64,000 nt of DNA from an uncultured Bacteroidales bacterium (GCA_963732435.1 CAVSZL010000008.1:34546-98545), one strand, 5' to 3'. Positions 26,747 to 35,024 are shown, numbered from the stretch's first letter. Made by a program: numbers and translations. Notes: a model not told the origin generated them from the letters alone.

Positions 26747-27508
26747 ATGAAAATTGTGTCCTGGAACGTAAACGGAATCCGTGCTATTGCCAAAAAATCT
26801 TTTTTTACTGATCTTGAAATTCTTGGAGCCGACATCCTTTGCCTGCAGGAAACAAAAGCCCAGGAACATCAGGTTGCCGAAACTCTTGCGCCACTGAAAG
26901 ACCATCATATCTATTCAAATTCTGCGGATAAACCTGGTTACTCCGGAACAGCTGTTGTCTCAAAAATTGTTCCACTGAATGTAACAAAAGGTATTAATAA
27001 TAAGGATCATGATACGGAAGGCAGGGTATTGTCTCTGGAATTTGAATCATTCTTCCTGGTAAATGTATACGTGCCTAACTCTGGCAGTGAATTAAAGCGG
27101 TTAAGCTATCGGCAGTCCTGGGATAAGGCTTTTTTTGACTATCTGAAAGATCTGGAACGGAACAAACCTGTTATTGTGTGCGGCGACTTAAATGTTGCCC
27201 ATAAAGAGATCGACCTTGCTCGCCCGAAAGCCAATTACAATAAATCAGCAGGTTATATGCAGGAGGAGATAGATGGAATGGACCGGTTTACTGAAGGAGG
27301 ACTGGCTGATACCTTCCGCCGTCTTCATCCGAATGAGTCAGGAAGATACACCTGGTGGAGTTACATGGCAGGTGCAAGATCAAAGAATATAGGATGGAGG
27401 ATCGATTATTTTCTGGTCACCGAATCCTTCCTGCCTGCAGTAAAGGATGCCTTTATTCTGGAAGAAATGACCGGCTCTGATCATTGCCCTGTAGGAATAG
27501 TGCTATAG
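26747..27508 (+). CDS. xth: Exodeoxyribonuclease III
   Basis: MKIVSWNVNGIR...LCLQETK...GDLNVAH...SDHCPV. These are canonical ExoIII/APE family motifs. Confidence 0.92.
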   Translation: MKIVSWNVNGIRAIAKKSFFTDLEILGADILCLQETKAQEHQVAETLAPLKDHHIYSNSADKPGYSGTAVVSKIVPLNVTKGINNKDHDTEGRVLSLEFESFFLVNVYVPNSGSELKRLSYRQSWDKAFFDYLKDLERNKPVIVCGDLNVAHKEIDLARPKANYNKSAGYMQEEIDGMDRFTEGGLADTFRRLHPNESGRYTWWSYMAGARSKNIGWRIDYFLVTESFLPAVKDAFILEEMTGSDHCPVGIVL

Positions 27509-27600
27509 CTTTAACAATATAAAGACTTGAATATAAATTAAATCAGGCCTGCATCAATCGGGATCATGACTTAACTCATCAAATATATTGACCTTAAAAA

Positions 27601-28044
27601 TTGATAGAAGGATTATTTGATTACAGCCTCTGGGGATTATTTCTGGCCAGTTTCCTGGCAGCCACTGTTGTGCCTTTCAGTTCGGAAGCGCTCCTCTCCT
27701 ACCTCATAATCAACGGAACAGATGCTTATACAGCAGTTATAGTGGCTTCAGCCGGAAACTGGTTGGGGGGGATGAGCAGCTTTGCCATTGGTTATCTTGG
27801 TAAATGGGAATGGATTGAAAAGTACCTGAGGATAAAACGTGAAACCATTGAAAAATGGCATAACCGGCTTTACAAAAGAGGAGCTCTTTTTGCTTTTCTA
27901 TCCTGGGTTCCGGCAGTAGGAGATATTTTTGCGGTCGGGCTCGGAATTCTGAGGGCAAATATCATAATTACTGCCACTGCCATGCTGGCTGGAAAATTTT
28001 TACGCTATGTGATCTGGGGTTGGGTGACCGGACTTGTATTCTGA
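27601..28044 (+). CDS. YqaA/DedA-related inner-membrane protein
   Basis: Multi-TM protein. FLAATVVPFSSEALL resembles the YqaA family. Only a TTG start is available after the in-frame stop at 27595. Confidence 0.6.
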   Translation: MIEGLFDYSLWGLFLASFLAATVVPFSSEALLSYLIINGTDAYTAVIVASAGNWLGGMSSFAIGYLGKWEWIEKYLRIKRETIEKWHNRLYKRGALFAFLSWVPAVGDIFAVGLGILRANIIITATAMLAGKFLRYVIWGWVTGLVF

Positions 28045-28058
28045 GTAATGCTTTTCAG

Positions 28059-28568
28059 TTAATTTTTATATGGGCTCATTGTCCAGAATTGGCCTTTATA
28101 GAAATTCCAGACTGAATCGAATCCTGCAGGCAGATAATATTCAATATAGTCTTTATTTATAAGGACTTTGTTATACTTTATTTCCTTTTTAAACAGTTCC
28201 TGGATTATGCCTTTGCTATATAAAAAAACGAAAAGAAATGCTGTTCCCTTATACTCATTTACTGCCACTATTTCCATATCACCATCTGCACCAAAATCAT
28301 ATTCATAAATATTCAGCCTGGAAATATCTTCTCCTACAATTTGTTTCACTGTCCTGTCTTTATATACAATTTCAAAATAACATGACCCCTGATTACATCC
28401 TACCCTGACCATTTCACTTGAGGATAATTTACCCTGGGCTTTCATTGCATCCTTTCTTGCAAGAAGAACCTGTAACTTGTTGCCGGAGAATGTAATATCC
28501 GGTTGAAGTTTCTGTGCAGAGATACTTAGCGATACCAGCAGGAGGAAAAAAATAGTCCACTTTTTCAT
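28059..28568 (-). CDS. Hypothetical secreted protein
   Basis: Internal Met gives signal peptide MKKWTIFFLLLVSLSISAQ. No recognisable family. Confidence 0.5.
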   Translation of the reverse strand: MKKWTIFFLLLVSLSISAQKLQPDITFSGNKLQVLLARKDAMKAQGKLSSSEMVRVGCNQGSCYFEIVYKDRTVKQIVGEDISRLNIYEYDFGADGDMEIVAVNEYKGTAFLFVFLYSKGIIQELFKKEIKYNKVLINKDYIEYYLPAGFDSVWNFYKGQFWTMSPYKN

Positions 28569-28844
28569 GACAATCTGGATTATGTTATAATTCAAAATAT
28601 TAAATATCAGTACCAGAATTTAAATATCTTATTTCTATTCACGGTTAATTAAAACCTGACACTTATTAAAACTGATCATCTGTAATAAAATTGTGTAAAA
28701 CCTGATTTTTGATCCGTTCAGAATATTTAATAAACAGAATCAAAGGATAACAGAATCTTCTGATATGCAGAACCGGGAGATAAATAATGAATGAGTTCTG
28801 TAATTGTATTCCGGATGGAAGAAGTGAAATGCCAGACTAAACGA

Positions 28845-29492
28845 TTAAATACATTGCAAAATCTCAGGATAATGTAAAACTGATGGCTTGCCAACCGGAT
28901 TTTTACTTAAACCAACCATTGCTTTTGCCAGCTTTTCCACCGGCATACTCCTGTATTTTTTTAAAGATCCTGTCAGGACAGGATCCGTCAATTTCATAAC
29001 GTATGAAGCAATTTTCTCCGCAAGCCTAAATTCTTTCCTCTTCCCGACCAGAAGTCCGGGTCTGAAATGAAATACCTTTTGGGGGAAGAACCTCTCTGTG
29101 CCTTCTTCCATCTCTGCTTTTGTTTTCAAATAAAATCCGCCTTTCTTATTCGCCCCAACACTTGATACATTCAGCATGATTCCAACCCCGTTTTCAGAAG
29201 CAATTCTGGCAAAACCTACAGGTAAATCCCTGTCGATCCGCTGCTGTTCCTGTTTACTGCCTGCCTGCTTTATTGTTGTTCCCAAAGCGTTAAATAACAC
29301 ATCCCCTTTAATATAAGAACTCAGGGAAAAGACATCAGTCAATGGATCAACAGTCTCTCTTATTTTTTCATGTAAAATCCCCGTCGGTTTACGGACAAAA
29401 ATCCTTACTTCCGTGAAATAGTTATCATCCAGAACTTCTTTCAGTATCAAATTCCCTACTAAGCCGGATGCTCCAATTAAAATTGCTTTCAT
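28845..29492 (-). CDS. NAD(P)H-binding (atypical SDR/NmrA-like) protein
   Basis: N-terminal Rossmann motif MKAILIGASGLVGNLIL. Confidence 0.7.
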   Translation of the reverse strand: MKAILIGASGLVGNLILKEVLDDNYFTEVRIFVRKPTGILHEKIRETVDPLTDVFSLSSYIKGDVLFNALGTTIKQAGSKQEQQRIDRDLPVGFARIASENGVGIMLNVSSVGANKKGGFYLKTKAEMEEGTERFFPQKVFHFRPGLLVGKRKEFRLAEKIASYVMKLTDPVLTGSLKKYRSMPVEKLAKAMVGLSKNPVGKPSVLHYPEILQCI

Positions 29493-29525
29493 TTAGAAAT
29501 ATTATTATTATGCAACCTTATAATT

Positions 29526-30359
29526 TCAGATGGTTTGAATATTAAGAAACATTTGAGAGGCTAAGTACCCAAAATATAATCCAATCAGGCAAAGAACAAT
29601 ACTCATGATTTTAACTAATCGTGACAAAAACATAATATTGATTGCTTTTCGGAATCGGGTTATAAGAACTGTCAGGATATAAAACCAGGAAATACTTCCT
29701 ACTGAAATAAAAAAAGCATAAAACAGACTAATTAATAAATGAAAATAGGAGGGAAAATTGGAATTTTCATTATGAGTGTTTTTTACTCCCTGTCCGGTAG
29801 CTGAATTAATAAATAAACTATCATTTAAACTGCTTTCAAAATTACTGATTTCCTTAACACTCTGGTCTATAAAAATATCCAATCCTCCTGTATTAAATCC
29901 AAGAGAAGAAACAAAGGAGATTACCAGGAATGTCGAAGTAAGCCATCCGATTAATAACATTGGATTACAAAAGTTAATCAGGCTTCCTGTATAGAAACCA
30001 CCTTTTTCCCTTTTTCTGATTTTCTCACTCAATTGACTTTTATCTTCAAAATGTTCAAAATCAATTTTCGTAGTGAAAATCTTGTATCCCAGATATAAAA
30101 GAATTATTGATCCGAAGGAGAGGAGATAAGGAATGGCCGGTTTGTAAAAAGAATACAATTTTGTCAAACCATAGACTGCGACAAATACATAAGTAAATGT
30201 TGCAAGAGATGCCCCGATATTCACCAAAATACAATAGCGGAACCTTCCTTTGAGTGCATTGGTTGTAATGAGGATGCTGATAGGTCCGGCAATTGGCATC
30301 GAAAAAATAACCCCTGCAAGTAATCCAACAATTGATATAGTAATTATACTTTCTGTCAT
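29526..30359 (-). CDS. LysE/RhtB-type translocator-like membrane protein with enlarged central loop
   Basis: Multi-TM protein. The N-terminus (GLLAGVIFSMPIAGPISILITTNALKG) is LysE-family-like. At 277 aa it is longer than typical members. Confidence 0.55.
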   Translation of the reverse strand: MTESIITISIVGLLAGVIFSMPIAGPISILITTNALKGRFRYCILVNIGASLATFTYVFVAVYGLTKLYSFYKPAIPYLLSFGSIILLYLGYKIFTTKIDFEHFEDKSQLSEKIRKREKGGFYTGSLINFCNPMLLIGWLTSTFLVISFVSSLGFNTGGLDIFIDQSVKEISNFESSLNDSLFINSATGQGVKNTHNENSNFPSYFHLLISLFYAFFISVGSISWFYILTVLITRFRKAINIMFLSRLVKIMSIVLCLIGLYFGYLASQMFLNIQTI

Positions 30360-30472
30360 TTAACCTTTCCTGCTTTACTGAAAATGATTTAATATAAGTA
30401 CATACTTTATCTTGTTATGTTTCTGTTGAGGATTCGCAAAGCATAAAAAATATTTTCTCCGGATTAATATTG

Positions 30473-31372
30473 TTATTTAATAATTACGTGATCTAACTTA
30501 AATTGAGTAATGTATGATTTATCGACTTTATGCTGAATTATCCAGATTATCAGTGCATAGATGTTCAGACCCACAATTGTAATCCAAAAATAGATGTCGT
30601 AACGACTGAACAGAGAACAGACAATCAATGCTGTTCTGACAATTGACGGTCCCATAAAAACCCATAGACGAATCAGAAATCTGTTCTTCCTGTAATACTC
30701 TTCTGAAGAGACATTGGGTAATTCAGGTTTCTTTTTTTTGCCAATAAGGTTTTTTTGGAATTTTGAATATACAAGATAAATCCCAATAACATTTTTTTCA
30801 ATCCATTTTCCTTTTTGCTCCTTCAGTATTAAGTATTCTTCCCTGTAAGCGTCAACACCTTCAGCAAAAGTATTCTTCCGTTTATTGATTATATCAAGAA
30901 ATCGTGTTCTGTAAAAATCAACCAGCATATCCTGAATTATAATGCTGACACCGGATAAAAGCAACAGACCCAAAATAAAAAAGGGTTGTCCGTCTTTTTG
31001 TGAATATCCGATTGCAATCCCTATATAAATTGCAGTTACAACAATGTAATCGGCTATACCATCGAGTAACCTGCCCATTGAAGAACCATTTTTTTTTAGC
31101 CGTGCAAGCTGACCATCACTGCAATCCAGAATAATAAACAATATAAAGAAAACAGCGCCGATATTGCTGGCCGACTGTAAACCAAATGTGTAGAATACTC
31201 CTCCGATTAATCCCATTACAATTGCGGCTAATGTAAGCTGATCCGGTGTAATTCTTGTATTATAAATCAATTTGATAAGGAGGAATGCAAGGGGCCTGTA
31301 AATAATCAGGTCGACAAATTCCTCTACCTCTGTCATTTTAAGAGATTTTTTATATTCAGTAAACCAGCTCAT
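30473..31372 (-). CDS. CDP-alcohol phosphatidyltransferase family protein
   Basis: Signature DCSDGQLARLKKNGSSMGRLLDGIADY matches D-x2-DG-x2-AR-x8-G-x3-D-x3-D. Multi-TM. Start chosen at MSWFTEYKK to avoid overlap with the SDR gene. Confidence 0.85.
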   Translation of the reverse strand: MSWFTEYKKSLKMTEVEEFVDLIIYRPLAFLLIKLIYNTRITPDQLTLAAIVMGLIGGVFYTFGLQSASNIGAVFFILFIILDCSDGQLARLKKNGSSMGRLLDGIADYIVVTAIYIGIAIGYSQKDGQPFFILGLLLLSGVSIIIQDMLVDFYRTRFLDIINKRKNTFAEGVDAYREEYLILKEQKGKWIEKNVIGIYLVYSKFQKNLIGKKKKPELPNVSSEEYYRKNRFLIRLWVFMGPSIVRTALIVCSLFSRYDIYFWITIVGLNIYALIIWIIQHKVDKSYITQFKLDHVIIK

Positions 31373-31385
31373 AATTCCCCTTTCT

Positions 31386-32111
31386 TTATTGATATGAATA
31401 CCCACCATCAATTGTAATAATCTCTCCATTTAAATAATGACTATCTATAATGAATAAATAGACAGAAGCAACTTCTTCCGGTGTAGCAAAACGTTTTAAT
31501 GATATTTTCGACTTTATATTTTCCCTGATATCTGACGGTTTATCTTTCTGCCATTCTGTATCAACAAAACCCGGCGATACACAATTAATTCTGATGTTAT
31601 AAGGAATCAGAAATTTTACAAGATTTTTAACCATGGCATGAACTGCGGATTTGGTAATGCCGTATGAAATGGATACAGAGTGTGGAAATATTGCCATTGA
31701 AGAACCGGTAAATATAATATTTGACCCGCTTTTTAACAATGGTAAAAACCTCTGAATCAAAAACAATGGTGTTGTGATATTCATATTAACAACAGATTCC
31801 CACTCCTCCATTGTAATGTCAGTTACACCTTTTCTTACTGTCTTTCCGGCGTTCAGAATAAGAACATCAATGGTTTCAGTTATTTTCTTAACTTCAGAAA
31901 ACAGGAATGCAATATTTTCTGTATTCGAGAGATCGCATTTGATCAGATAGTAAAAATTTCCGAATTCAGTTTCAAATTCCTGCCTGGTTAAAAGAGCAGA
32001 TGTATCATCATTATGATAAACAGATATTACTGCAAAGCCCTGATTTAATAGCTGCCGGCAGATCTCTTTTCCAATTCCCTTTGTTCCTCCGGTTACAATT
32101 GAATATTTCAT
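31386..32111 (-). CDS. Short-chain dehydrogenase/reductase (SDR)
   Basis: TGGTKGIGKEI cofactor motif and YGITKSA (YxxxK) catalytic motif. Confidence 0.88.
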   Translation of the reverse strand: MKYSIVTGGTKGIGKEICRQLLNQGFAVISVYHNDDTSALLTRQEFETEFGNFYYLIKCDLSNTENIAFLFSEVKKITETIDVLILNAGKTVRKGVTDITMEEWESVVNMNITTPLFLIQRFLPLLKSGSNIIFTGSSMAIFPHSVSISYGITKSAVHAMVKNLVKFLIPYNIRINCVSPGFVDTEWQKDKPSDIRENIKSKISLKRFATPEEVASVYLFIIDSHYLNGEIITIDGGYSYQ

Positions 32112-32116
32112 TTATC

Positions 32117-32563
32117 CTATTTAATATCAGGATTCTTATGCTTATCTATTTTATTCTTCATCTTTAGATAGTTTGCATGAATCTTCTCTTTTACATTTGA
32201 ACTGTTAGTCCCTTTGCCGTAAGGGAAATAAAAGACTTGTACTCCTAAACTTTCAAGATAATCGTATTTTCCAAACCAATCATCCCCAATTACAAATGAA
32301 TTAATATGAAGCTTCTTTATTAATTCTGTATGGTCTAATGTATGCTGGGGGATTACAATATCAGGATATTTGAGAGCTTCTATAATCTGAATTCTTTCCT
32401 CAAATGGAATTATTGACGGCTTTTTATATGTACTTACCAGTTCATCTGTACTTACACCAACTATCAGAACATCTCCTAATCCTCTTGCATATTTAATCAT
32501 TTTGAGATGATTACTATGGAAAAGATCAAAAGTGCCTGAAGTGTAAACTATTATTTGATTCAT
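32117..32563 (-). CDS. TagD-like cytidylyltransferase (glycerol-3-phosphate cytidylyltransferase family)
   Basis: SGTFDLFHSNHLKMI is an HxGH-type nucleotidyltransferase motif variant. 148 aa, typical of the family. Confidence 0.8.
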   Translation of the reverse strand: MNQIIVYTSGTFDLFHSNHLKMIKYARGLGDVLIVGVSTDELVSTYKKPSIIPFEERIQIIEALKYPDIVIPQHTLDHTELIKKLHINSFVIGDDWFGKYDYLESLGVQVFYFPYGKGTNSSNVKEKIHANYLKMKNKIDKHKNPDIK

Positions 32564-32891
32564 TCCATGGAGATATAATTAATAATAGATGTGAAAATAG
32601 TGAATTTTATTTGTTGTGAACATATATAACTCAATTTGTTCAACATAATTGTAATCCATAGAAGTTAAAATAGTAGTAATATAAATTACTTAGTGGTATT
32701 TAAAACATTTAAAATAATCTGCCTTTTTCTTCATGTGCATGGAAATAAAAGCTTCAGTATGCCTGTCTTATTCATATATTAACCAGAAAGATAAAGTTTC
32801 GTCGCCGGAATTAACCGGTTTGCAGATTTTTTTTTTAATAGTTGAACTGACTCTTGATATTTGCTTCATGTTTAACTAAAAATTTAATATT

Positions 32892-33275
32892 ATGAAAAAA
32901 TTTACTGAGATTTCAATCCATCTTACCTTCTGGATTTTATTTACTGCTGTTGTATATGTACTAAGTAAAATTTATCTGGAAGTGAAACCTGATGCCCCTT
33001 TTTCAAATCATTTCACTTATGTAATTTTTCTGGAAGTATTCATGGGGGTTATTTTTTTCTATACAACATACTTTTGCATTCCCTGGGCGAAAAAGAAACA
33101 AACTAATGCTTTAATCCTGACAATAATTCTTCTTTTCCTTTTGATGTTCTTTGCATTTCCGGCAATGAAGATCGGGGTTTTGCAAGTAATGAGTTCAATT
33201 ATTCCTCATTTGTTACTGATATTTGTTGCAATTCTTTTAAAACTATACTCTATTTCTGTAAGGTCTTTGACATAA
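32892..33275 (+). CDS. Four-TM membrane protein, stand-alone paralog of the sensor domain of the downstream histidine kinase
   Basis: By eye, 44 of the first 70 residues are identical (63%) to the N-terminus of 33353..34342 (shared SKIYL..KPDAPFS, IFFY, FAxPAMK, QVMSSxIPHL). There is no kinase core. Confidence 0.65.
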   Translation: MKKFTEISIHLTFWILFTAVVYVLSKIYLEVKPDAPFSNHFTYVIFLEVFMGVIFFYTTYFCIPWAKKKQTNALILTIILLFLLMFFAFPAMKIGVLQVMSSIIPHLLLIFVAILLKLYSISVRSLT

Positions 33276-33352
33276 TTAAGTTTCTCTCCTTTCTTAAGCT
33301 TTCTGCAGATATTAATGTTAGCTTAATATTTTAAGACTAAATTTACACAATC

Positions 33353-34342
33353 ATGAAAAAGTCGATAGAAATATTCGTTCACATATTCTTCTGGATAATA
33401 TTTACAGCATTTGTTTTTATGCTGAGCAAAATCTATCTGCAGGCTAAGCCGGATGCCCCATTTTCACAACATTTACTCTATGTAGTATTTTTGGAATTGA
33501 TAATGGGGCTTATCTTTTTTTATATTACTTTTTTTGGAATAAAATGGGTAGAAAAGAAGAAACTAAGTCTGTTTATTTTTTCATTTATTCTTTTGGCTCT
33601 TCTCGTCTTTTTTGCAATTCCTGCCATGAAATTTGGAGTCTGGCAGGTTATGAGCTCTGTTATTCCTCATTTGATACTTATATTACTGGCACTAATTTTC
33701 CGGAAATTTTCTGACTCCATCAGACTTGAACAGGAAAAACAGTTTCTAATCCTTCAAAACACGAAAAGTGAACTGGCCTTATTGAAGATGCAGCTTAGTC
33801 CTCATTTTCTTTTTAATACACTCAACAATATAGATTATCTGGTAAGCTATGATACAGAAAAAGCCTCCGGTTCAATTTCTAAACTTGGCGCCATACTTCG
33901 TTACATGATTTATGATACAGAAGCTGAAAAAATCCCGTTATCAAAAGAATTAAAATATATTGAAGATTATATTGATTTACTACGATTAAGAACTTCTGGC
34001 AAAAATTATCTCAATTACAAGATATCCGGGCAGATCTCATATTTACAAATAGCACCAATGCTTTTTATGCCATTGGTTGAAAATGCCTATAAACATTCAT
34101 CTACTAAGGAAGGTGAAAACATTGTCGATATCAGAATTGAAATTGTAAACAACAAATTACAATTCAATATTAACAATGAATATGACAGCTCCTTAAAATC
34201 ACAAACACCAGAAGGTGGCCTGGGATTAAATATAGTAAAGAGAAGACTGGAACTTATTTATCCGGGCAGGCACAGTTTTAAAAAAATTGAAGAACAAAAC
34301 AGATATAAGATTGAATTAATCCTTGAACTGGATGAATATTAG
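33353..34342 (+). CDS. LytS/YehU-type sensor histidine kinase
   Basis: N-terminal TM sensor, then the His_kinase motif LKMQLSPHFLFNTLNNI, then a GHKL ATPase region (PLVENAYKHS...GGLGLNIV). Confidence 0.88.
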   Translation: MKKSIEIFVHIFFWIIFTAFVFMLSKIYLQAKPDAPFSQHLLYVVFLELIMGLIFFYITFFGIKWVEKKKLSLFIFSFILLALLVFFAIPAMKFGVWQVMSSVIPHLILILLALIFRKFSDSIRLEQEKQFLILQNTKSELALLKMQLSPHFLFNTLNNIDYLVSYDTEKASGSISKLGAILRYMIYDTEAEKIPLSKELKYIEDYIDLLRLRTSGKNYLNYKISGQISYLQIAPMLFMPLVENAYKHSSTKEGENIVDIRIEIVNNKLQFNINNEYDSSLKSQTPEGGLGLNIVKRRLELIYPGRHSFKKIEEQNRYKIELILELDEY

Positions 34343-35024
34343 TTGTATCGCCGTTGATGATGAGCCTCTGGCTATTGAAAAGATAAAATCATTCATTGGA
34401 AAACTACCTCAATTAGAGTTATTGGGAACGTTCATTCATTCTTCTGCTGCTTATGAATTCTTAATCAATAACCCGGTAGACCTTGTCTTTCTCGATATAC
34501 AAATGGGTAAATTAAACGGTATTGAAATGGTTGAGAAAATGGTAAGCAAACCGCAGGTTATTTTTACTACAGCCTATAATGAATATGCAATAAAAGCATT
34601 TGAGCTTGCTGTTACTGATTATTTACTCAAACCATATACATTCGATCGTTTTAGCCAGGCTGTTAATAAAGCAACTGAATATATCCTCTGGCAATCAGCA
34701 GCTTTTAAACCAACACCACATGTTATTGAATACATTTTTGTTAAATCAGGTTATAAATTAGTTAAGATATTTTTGAACGAAATACAATATATTGAAGGAA
34801 TGAGGGACTTTCAATGCTTTGTAACCCCTGGTAGCAAAATATTAGTAAGTCACTCTTTTCAGGAACTGGAAAAAATACTACCCAAAAGTTTCGTCAGATG
34901 CCATAAATCTTATATAGTTCCATTGGCAAAAATAGAAAGCATCGAGAGGGACAGAATTAAAATAGGTAATAAGTTTATTCCAGTAGGCGATATGTATAAA
35001 AGCGATTTCTACAAAAGTATCTGA
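34332..35024 (+). CDS. LytTR-family response regulator
   Basis: Receiver domain (IAVDDEPLA...VFLDIQM) plus a C-terminal LytTR DNA-binding domain (FVRCHKSYIV). The start overlaps the kinase stop. Confidence 0.88.
   Translation: MNISCIAVDDEPLAIEKIKSFIGKLPQLELLGTFIHSSAAYEFLINNPVDLVFLDIQMGKLNGIEMVEKMVSKPQVIFTTAYNEYAIKAFELAVTDYLLKPYTFDRFSQAVNKATEYILWQSAAFKPTPHVIEYIFVKSGYKLVKIFLNEIQYIEGMRDFQCFVTPGSKILVSHSFQELEKILPKSFVRCHKSYIVPLAKIESIERDRIKIGNKFIPVGDMYKSDFYKSI

Follow-up and report, generated by a model that had tools for sequence, protein, structure and literature searches.

The gene clusters closest in kind to the one analyzed here are the Group 1 phosphonolipid clusters described by Li & Horsman 2022 (PMC8942020), with a further example from Nostoc (PMC5987646). 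They carry a long CDP-alcohol (CDP-OH) transferase, a LysE-family gene directly downstream of it and a cytidylyltransferase that feeds it; the product of these predicted Group 1, or ‘Burkholderiales_CDP-OH’, clusters has never been characterized (PMC8942020; PMC5987646). Here we analyze a cluster in a 64,000-nucleotide stretch of DNA (‘the window’) from an uncultured Bacteroidales bacterium (GCA_963732435.1 CAVSZL010000008.1:34546-98545). Four of its genes, encoding a TagD-family cytidylyltransferase (CT), a classical short-chain dehydrogenase/reductase (SDR), a CDP-alcohol phosphotransferase (hereafter the transferase) and a LysE-like membrane protein, appear to be a conserved operon in uncultured Bacteroidales, judging from their spacing and conserved synteny. 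We read them, with a probability of about 55%, as a cassette that activates an alcohol phosphate with CTP and attaches the resulting head group to a membrane lipid. The original prediction, made from the sequence of the window, could match the gene set to no characterized pathway; the set does correspond to a cluster type that has been described, namely the predicted Group 1 phosphonolipid clusters, and is the phosphate-ester, non-amine variant of a widespread, biochemically uncharacterized system whose only described relatives are those predicted clusters.

The differences from Group 1 concern the donor module. In three distant relatives (L086, L091 and L093), whose transferases share 26-27% identity with the window protein, the transferase-LysE pair lies inside a complete 2-aminoethylphosphonate (AEP) pathway with a phosphoenolpyruvate (PEP) mutase-nucleotidyltransferase fusion, a phosphonopyruvate decarboxylase, an AEP aminotransferase and a stand-alone PntC-like transferase. 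The first three of these functions pass their NCBIfam cutoffs in L086 (395 vs. 320, 396 vs. 313 and 388 vs. 361 bits, respectively), and L091, which additionally has a TauD-type oxygenase, reproduces the published seven-gene Group 1 core. The window, in contrast, lacks PEP mutase, phosphonopyruvate decarboxylase and AEP transaminase as well as an oxygenase and PntC, and its donor module is the TagD-like CT plus the SDR. A hidden phosphonate pathway was considered and rejected, as tblastn with the L086 phosphonate enzymes gave no match in the window or in loci of the window type. The Group 1 clusters are reportedly also attributed to Yu et al. 2013.

Other described systems share parts of this logic. 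TagD/TarD with TagF, TarI/TarJ or Bcs1 supply teichoic acid and capsule synthesis with CDP-glycerol and CDP-ribitol, and the pairing of a reductase with a cytidylyltransferase in the window module matches TarIJ and Bcs1. TagD and TarD are the best characterized relatives of the CT; in the window, however, the acceptor enzyme is a CDP-alcohol phosphotransferase rather than a TagF-type polymerase, and the SDR is facultative. The eukaryotic Kennedy pathway (ECT/CCT plus CEPT1/CHPT1) likewise runs from a GCT/ECT/CCT-fold enzyme through a CDP-alcohol to diacylglycerol or ceramide, and the Drosophila ceramide phosphoethanolamine (CPE) synthase, CPES, carries the same motif as the transferase (PMC9550178), but CEPT1/CHPT1 are distant matches with extra transmembrane (TM) helices (PMC4634129) and eukaryotes have no LysE-like partner. 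For the putative inositol-lipid cluster of the Bacteroides vulgatus type (Heaver et al. 2022, PMC9246714), a CDP-alcohol made by an NTP-transferase and used by a CDP-alcohol phosphatidyltransferase has been proposed; compared by its description, that cluster differs in lying beside a myo-inositol-phosphate synthase (MIPS), with a HAD hydrolase and no LysE partner reported (PMC9246714).

The transferase carries the motif DCSDGQLARLKKNGSSMGRLLDGIAD at 31049-31126, the sole D-x2-DG-x2-AR...G-x3-D-x3-D motif of the window, and the eight motif residues are invariant across 31 diverse homologs; its Pfam score (Table 1) makes it a member of the class I CDP-alcohol phosphotransferases. A profile of 28 diverse family members, searched against PDB sequences, matched AF2299 best (E = 1.9e-24), followed by PIPS (6e-14), DIPPS (1e-11) and CEPT1/CHPT1 (2e-8 to 2e-6), with the weakest matches to PgsA (1.5e-4) and PssA (5e-3). 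An AlphaFold2 (AF2) model (pLDDT 89, pTM 0.84) consists of a JM1 helix and six long helices, i.e., a 6-TM core, with a two-helix insert of ~80 residues between TM4 and TM5 and no added TM helices; this insert stands where the original prediction had seen an extended multi-TM C-terminus. Foldseek with the model also returned AF2299 as the top match, and CEPT1/CHPT1 gave no significant fold match. Thus AF2299 and the IPCT/DIPPS of Archaeoglobus fulgidus (4o6m, 4q7c, 4mnd) are nearest by profile and fold and have the 6-TM core and the motif in common with the window protein; in systems of this type, soluble CDP-glycerol and CDP-inositol donors are made by an associated cytidylyltransferase (PMC4634129). 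The window transferase nevertheless differs in lacking the fused N-terminal cytidylyltransferase-like domain (structural-alignment identity is 14-16%), in its insert, in its LysE partner and in the absence of a phosphatase step.

No curated model claims the transferase, which falls under every NCBIfam equivalog cutoff, including those of PgsA (TIGR00560, 27.1 vs. 109.1 bits), PssA (TIGR00473, 24.3 vs. 107 bits), PIP synthase (NF045883, 42.5 vs. 170 bits), archaetidylinositol-P synthase (NF040950, 46.6 vs. 180 bits), DIPPS (NF041135, 33 vs. 580 bits) and the BT1523-type enzymes (NF052561, 21.2 vs. 350 bits). Its family has 1006 matches in a clustered database and 6208 representatives at E<1e-3, 111 of them at <1e-30; nearly all come from uncultured organisms. 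On these comparisons the protein is best classified as a non-housekeeping CDP-alcohol transferase, closest to AF2299, then to PIPS/DIPPS, and far from PgsA/PssA. This agrees with the original prediction, which had set a housekeeping placement together with unconserved neighbors as grounds for giving the pathway up; neither was found.

To describe the neighbors, we drew on 97 related loci, including 84 with Bacteroidota-type transferase relatives (47-92% identical), whose neighboring genes were typed by tblastn, plus 12 loci (L085-L088, L090-L097) of distant relatives that are 26-36% identical to the window transferase. The arrangement of the window, CT-SDR-transferase-LysE, occurs in 12 of the 84 Bacteroidota-type loci, and CT-transferase-LysE without the SDR in four (L008/L009 and L017/L022, two sub-lineages); 65 of the 84 instead have a HisC-like class I/II pyridoxal phosphate (PLP) enzyme, the transferase, a LicC/PntC/IPCT-like NTP-transferase and the LysE-like gene. 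Where there was room downstream, the LysE-like gene came next after the transferase in 49 of 54 loci, and it follows in L001 too, past an inserted ORF. The pair is also present in the distant lineages L085-L087 and L091-L095, while a Bacteriovoracaceae locus has transferase and LysE with a PntC-AEP-aminotransferase fusion, a Krumholzibacteriia locus has the HisC-like arrangement and protein P0262 is a transferase-NTP-transferase fusion. Both the CT and the LysE-like gene are therefore co-conserved with the transferase, and the LysE-like protein, which had been listed as following the biosynthetic genes, keeps its place in the cluster as an obligate transferase partner rather than an add-on. 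Together, the neighborhoods indicate that transferase and LysE form an old, widespread core to which different donor-making modules are attached. When all flanking ORFs were clustered without bias, no family other than those of the modules and the core occurred in more than 12 loci; phosphatases, kinases, acyltransferases and glycosyltransferases were without a recurring family among the clustered flanking ORFs of the surveyed loci, and the same clustering of the transferase neighborhoods turned up no MIPS gene or phosphatase. The lack of a conserved phosphatase or kinase in the flanks argues against phosphorylated-acceptor chemistry of the PGP, PIP or DIPP type.

Some loci vary in detail. One lineage of the amino-alcohol type has an ORF of 362 aa inserted between transferase and NTP-transferase that matches neither Pfam nor NCBIfam models (L001 6837-7925, L055 6872-7909), and in L036 (1913-5670) a gene for a class V aminotransferase-like protein and one for a divergent NTP-transferase come after the transferase and LysE-like genes.

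Across lineages the transferase is coupled to CMP/CDP-activating enzymes of at least three unrelated kinds, namely TagD-like enzymes, LicC/PntC-like enzymes and PntC in fusion with PEP mutase or AEP transaminase; this coupling argues strongly that its donor is a soluble CDP-alcohol rather than CDP-diacylglycerol. The core logic of the original prediction, a CT whose soluble CDP-alcohol is used by a non-housekeeping transferase on an acceptor, is thus favored by the comparative evidence, whereas its five-gene scope and its need for a reductase are not. In L096 (5142-6941) the gene immediately preceding that of the transferase encodes a 599-aa fusion of NTP-transferase and HisC-like PLP enzyme; this fusion is reminiscent of FrbH-type enzymes, which act on CMP-activated substrates, and in some lineages the PLP step may come after cytidylylation.

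In a neighbor-joining tree of the transferases, all CT-type loci fall into one clade nested within the HisC-like/NTP-transferase radiation, and the window type is best described as a derived module replacement of single origin, in which an amino-alcohol module gave way to a polyol-type one. Three residues track the module type. Transferase position 80, which precedes the first catalytic Asp by three residues, is Asn in 63/63 transferases of the HisC-like, aminotransferase (AT) type and Ile or Val in 19/19 of the CT type (Ile in the window); it is Gly in the AEP loci L085 and L086 and Ser in P0308 and P0320. Position 246, in TM5 after a conserved GPS kink, is Ile or Val in all 63 AT-type proteins and Arg in all 19 of the CT type, that of the window among them, as against Leu in L086, P0308 and P0320; the residue before it is Gln, Lys or Glu in AT-type transferases and His in distant loci. 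Position 54 of the LysE-like protein, in the middle of TM2, is Asp in all 41 AT-type proteins and Thr in 14 of the 15 CT-type ones (Thr in the window), with Asp, Asp and Glu in L085, L086 and L087, respectively. An acidic membrane residue was thus lost where the amine module was lost, and an Arg was gained in the transferase, for which the simplest reading is that a cationic head group was exchanged for a non-cationic one; we have moderate confidence that the head group of the window type is non-cationic. The covariation at position 54 suggests, moreover, that the LysE-like protein recognizes the head group. The single window-type LysE-like protein with Asp at this position is that of L013 (a CT+SDR locus), whose close relative L012 has Thr; L013 may reflect recombination or an intermediate state. 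The L036 variant has Asp, like other amine types.

The HisC-like enzyme of the relatives scores 232 bits against a hisC cutoff of 276 and lacks the N-terminal arm. It keeps all PLP-binding residues and Arg335 of Escherichia coli HisC, and swaps D85E, Y110W, Y243L and R322K in 51/51 sequences (residue roles as in the HisC literature). A housekeeping HisC was rejected on these grounds, the score being under the cutoff and the side-chain-pocket residues replaced throughout. It is thus a specialized paralog with a different, probably phosphorylated, substrate, and its reaction may be a transamination (e.g., of dihydroxyacetone phosphate (DHAP) to serinol phosphate) or a decarboxylation (e.g., of phosphoserine to phosphoethanolamine); the amino-alcohol phosphate of this type may be phosphoethanolamine or phosphoserinol.

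Among solved structures, the CT of the window is nearest to TagD (1coz, E = 1e-23) and TarD (2b7l, 1e-22), then ECT (3elb) and the cytidylyltransferase domain of Fom1 (5x3d). CT orthologs, encoded upstream of the transferase in the 13 window-type loci listed, have 82-84% identity both in loci with a following SDR gene and in loci without one. Since the CT is this similar in SDR-less loci, its substrate should be available without the SDR; this independence, the affinity to TagD and the non-cationic signature together make sn-glycerol-3-phosphate our best guess, although a tentative one at slightly less than even odds. The same architecture could instead serve phosphoethanolamine, ribitol-5-phosphate, glycerol-1-phosphate, 2-hydroxyethylphosphonate or another small alcohol phosph(on)ate, with the SDR as the committed step, which we consider unlikely. 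The CT does fall short of the TagD equivalog (TIGR01518, 108.3 vs. 165.4 bits); it keeps HSNH but has YG[KE]G[TV]SS[ST], also read as YGKGTNSS, in place of RTEGISTT in nine of nine orthologs and apparently lacks W74 and K44 of TagD; its loop YK[KNE]PPIIPFEER, common to the nine orthologs, resembles the ECT loop HKGPPVFTQEER; and the Fom1 domain that it matches cytidylylates hydroxyethylphosphonate. The tight coupling of CT and SDR, with a 5-bp gap in the window and a 4-bp overlap in L003, would also suit a dedicated precursor step. Against another alcohol stand the near-identical CT of loci without the SDR, the TagD and TarD scores, which are the best among characterized CT relatives, and the absence of PEP mutase and phosphonopyruvate decarboxylase from the window and the window-type loci; an ethanolamine-like cationic head group is further disfavored by the loss of the LysE TM2 Asp and the gain of Arg246. 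The claim that the reductase makes the alcohol had to be dropped as a requirement, as two sub-lineages do without the SDR although their CT still has 82-84% identity to that of the window. The SDR itself has the motifs TGGTKGIG and YGITK and Pfam scores above threshold, as expected of a classical SDR, and lies under every NCBIfam equivalog cutoff, with the YmfI and FabG types scoring best (TIGR01830 FabG, 150 vs. 297.75 bits); its nearest structure, FabG (2p68), is generic and allows no typing finer than FabG-like. It might, at a guess, provide dedicated DHAP reduction, make the opposite glycerol phosphate enantiomer or act on the lipid.

Overall, we picture a four-gene head-group cassette of Kennedy type, made of a donor module, an AF2299-like transferase and a LysE-family partner, in which the CT and transferase steps are those established for their families and the remaining steps are inferred. 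The SDR would top up the alcohol phosphate, e.g., by reducing DHAP with NAD(P)H to glycerol phosphate, a step that is dispensable in some relatives. The CT would convert a small, non-cationic alcohol phosphate and CTP to a CDP-alcohol, and the transferase, with its active site at the cytoplasmic face, would pass the phospho-alcohol to a hydroxyl acceptor and release CMP. This acceptor would most likely be a neutral membrane lipid, ceramide-like or diacylglycerol, giving a product such as phosphoglycerol dihydroceramide (PG-DHC). Finally, the LysE-family partner would recognize the head group and move a head-group intermediate, or else the product itself, across the inner membrane. The LysE-like protein, whose family has 1051 matches, matches its Pfam domain with the N-terminal half only, does not reach the TIGR00949 subfamily (23 vs. 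184 bits) and found no match among PDB sequences; its AF2 model shows six hydrophobic helices at a confidence too low for fold comparison (pLDDT 55). We assign it with moderate confidence the role of a head-group-specific translocator, either flippase or exporter.

The lipid acceptor, and a ceramide in particular, is suggested with moderate to weak confidence by gene neighborhoods. In two related lineages (L092 and L094/L095) the pair lies beside an α-oxoamine synthase (SPT/BioF/Kbl family), a 373-aa protein that is faintly GNAT-like and fused to the synthase in L094, an SDR and then a DUF4833 gene. A synthase, an N-acyltransferase and a reductase are the gene logic of bacterial ceramide synthesis (PMC11087976), and such logic around the pair hints, if weakly, at a ceramide-like acceptor. 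Also consistent with one are the sphingophosphonolipids with 1-hydroxy-AEP of Bacteriovorax stolpii (PMC8942020), Bacteriovoracaceae being among the carriers of the pair, the phosphoglycerol and phosphoethanolamine dihydroceramides of Bacteroidota (PMC3037954) and the membership of the Drosophila CPE synthase in the transferase superfamily (PMC9550178). The stretches concerned (L092 726-5581, L094 2030-8829) have the look of candidate sphingolipid-type clusters, with a radical SAM enzyme in L094; no cytidylyltransferase is visible in the L092 and L094/L095 loci.

Several points weigh against a lipid head-group cassette. Proteins of the LysE family are known to export small molecules and are not known as flippases; the case for an operon consists of spacing and synteny; and no member of the transferase clade is biochemically characterized. 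The CT features just listed leave glycerol phosphate unsecured, and nothing in the generic, FabG-like SDR points to a phosphorylated substrate. The link to sphingoid genes comes from two related lineages with the amine-type signature, whose genes score under the curated SPT/KdsR cutoffs, and no sphingolipid genes occur in the window. Finally, the solved relatives nearest to the transferase, AF2299 and DIPPS, work on soluble substrates and do not process lipids, and the donor pocket in which AF2299 holds CDP-glycerol is small and hydrophilic; the 6-TM architecture has been linked to soluble acceptors, while enzymes with lipid acceptors, e.g., CEPT1, possess additional TM helices (PMC4634129).

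The latter observations, with the 6-TM core of the transferase, speak for a soluble phosphodiester pathway, in which the CDP-alcohol is joined to a soluble hydroxyl compound and the LysE-like protein exports a metabolite, signal or periplasmic solute. Export of small amino-acid-like molecules by LysE/RhtB proteins fits the same pathway, as does a TM2 acidic residue that tracks amine head groups, expected of a transporter for small cationic solutes. We judge it unlikely, given that no phosphatase is conserved, though the DIP (di-myo-inositol phosphate), GPI (glycerophosphoinositol) and DGP (diglycerol phosphate) routes use a phosphorylated intermediate, that the near-invariant residues in the C-terminal half of the transferase family are non-basic (Y199, Y202, W237, N270) and that the pair adjoins ceramide-type genes in L092 and L094 and MlaC and MipA in L091; the homologous phosphonate clusters, moreover, are classed as phosphonolipid clusters in the literature, a classification that is itself unproven (PMC8942020). 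Decoration of the envelope, with the phospho-alcohol placed on lipid A or the lipopolysaccharide core, a polyprenyl-linked glycan or a capsule, by analogy with surface glycans that bear phosphoglycerol, phosphocholine or AEP, is improbable: AEP and phosphocholine do decorate glycans from CMP/CDP-activated donors (PMC6697681) and the acceptor is not encoded in the cluster, but the known decorating transferases are of the LicD or TagF/CgoT families, not CDP-alcohol phosphotransferases, and the flanks show no recurring genes for glycosyltransferases or polysaccharides. An ordinary CDP-diacylglycerol-dependent synthase (PgsA, PssA or PIPS-like) with unrelated neighbors would agree with the label ‘phosphatidylglycerophosphate synthase’ that many homologs bear in source databases; it is very hard to reconcile with NCBIfam scores far under the cutoffs, with PgsA and PssA as the weakest PDB matches and with strongly co-conserved neighbors whose residues covary by module type.

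A broader form of the lipid head-group reading, which we put forward as doubtful, is that the transferase-LysE pair is the missing bacterial head-group synthase for phosphosphingolipids or phospholipids together with its dedicated flippase, placing phosphoglycerol (window type), an amino-alcohol phosphate (HisC-like type) or (hydroxy)aminoethylphosphonate (phosphonate type) on ceramide-like lipids, with the three covarying residues setting specificity. Our literature searches turned up no enzyme by which bacterial sphingolipids receive phosphoglycerol, phosphoethanolamine or aminoethylphosphonate as a head group, and literature on serinol phosphate lipids, on a bacterial CPE synthase, on the synthesis of PG-DHC and on LysE as a component of phosphonolipid clusters yielded no characterized homolog; a flippase for bacterial sphingolipids has not been identified (PMC11087976). 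If the pair has these two roles, it would explain how PG-DHC and sphingophosphonolipids are made, and the partner would, as a flippase, be the first lipid-translocating member of the LysE superfamily. The cassette would bear on immunologically active Bacteroidota lipids if its acceptor is ceramide, and would define a new class of exported phosphodiesters if its product is soluble. In either case, one transferase-LysE core ties the Group 1 clusters to ~1000 Bacteroidota loci, donor modules are swapped on this core while three residues track the head-group class, and the compact four-gene cassette can be expressed, with point mutations of predicted outcome.

The coordinates of the cluster are given in Table 1. 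Five minus-strand ORFs are present exactly as the original prediction described them, separated from CT to fifth gene by gaps of 5, 13, 113 and 33 bp, and with the motifs named there (FHSNH in the CT, TGGTKGIG and YGITK in the SDR, DCSDGQLAR...G-x3-D-x3-D in the transferase); the first four proteins exceed their Pfam gathering scores. The transferase start was set at MSWF (31372), where all 292-aa homologs begin, although the mechanical ORF reaches 31429.

Table 1. Genes of the cluster and the adjoining spacer, in window coordinates.
Feature	Position	Strand	Details
TagD-family (GCT/ECT/CCT-type) cytidylyltransferase, CT	32117-32563	minus	148 aa; PF01467 60 bits
Classical SDR ketoreductase	31386-32111	minus	241 aa; PF13561 161.6 bits, PF00106 140 bits
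AF2299-like class I CDP-alcohol phosphotransferase	30473-31372	minus	299 aa; PF01066 51.8 bits (threshold 22 bits)
LysE/RhtB-family 6-TM membrane protein	29526-30359	minus	277 aa; PF01810 40 bits (threshold 25.6 bits)
TIP30/PA4017-like atypical SDR, fifth gene	28845-29492	minus	215 aa; PF13460 24.7 bits, below gathering score (27.2 bits)
AT-rich spacer upstream of CT	32564-32891		328 bp; presumed operon promoter region

Of the five-gene cluster originally proposed, the four-gene unit held up as co-conserved, while the fifth gene did not: a homolog lies beside the cluster in L005 only, a 92%-identical relative, and the gene is probably a passenger outside the conserved unit. Its product, which has no signal peptide, is nearest in structure to PA4017 (2a35, E = 4e-21) and TIP30 (2fmu/2bka). 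The bacterial ceramide reductase CerR is related to the NDUFA9 family; a CerR-like role for the fifth protein was considered and set aside, as its resemblance to NDUFA9 is weak (E = 0.007-0.05) and the gene is not co-conserved, and any link of this gene to sphingolipids is speculative.

The AT-rich spacer is presumably the promoter region of the operon and common to the divergent plus-strand gene. Scans of 27500-33500 for sigma-70 promoters and intrinsic terminators gave counts at or below shuffled expectation, which is uninformative for a Bacteroidota-like genome, and an Rfam scan of 28000-33400 had no match at E≤1, hence no riboswitch that might hint at a ligand. Across the spacer, and divergently transcribed, lie a 127-aa ORF (32892-33275, plus strand), which nearly duplicates the N-terminal membrane domain of the neighboring LytS-type histidine kinase (PF06580), and then this kinase (33353-35024, plus strand), followed by a LytTR response regulator. 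LytS/LytTR-type genes are not beside the cassette in L003/L004, the sole other window-type locus with flanks inspected.

The remaining genes of the window are ordinary chromosomal genes of Bacteroidota-like character (glycoside hydrolases, NadA, RuvB), none of them lipid-related, and the window has no tRNA genes. G+C content drops from ~0.40-0.48 at 1-28 kb to 0.30-0.38 at 28-64 kb, and in the intervals 50-52 kb and 56-64 kb GC skew rises to +0.25 to +0.31. The genes of this part are ordinary: NadA, a MORN-repeat protein, RuvB, a polysaccharide export protein, TPR and DUF4292 proteins and a peptidase M23.

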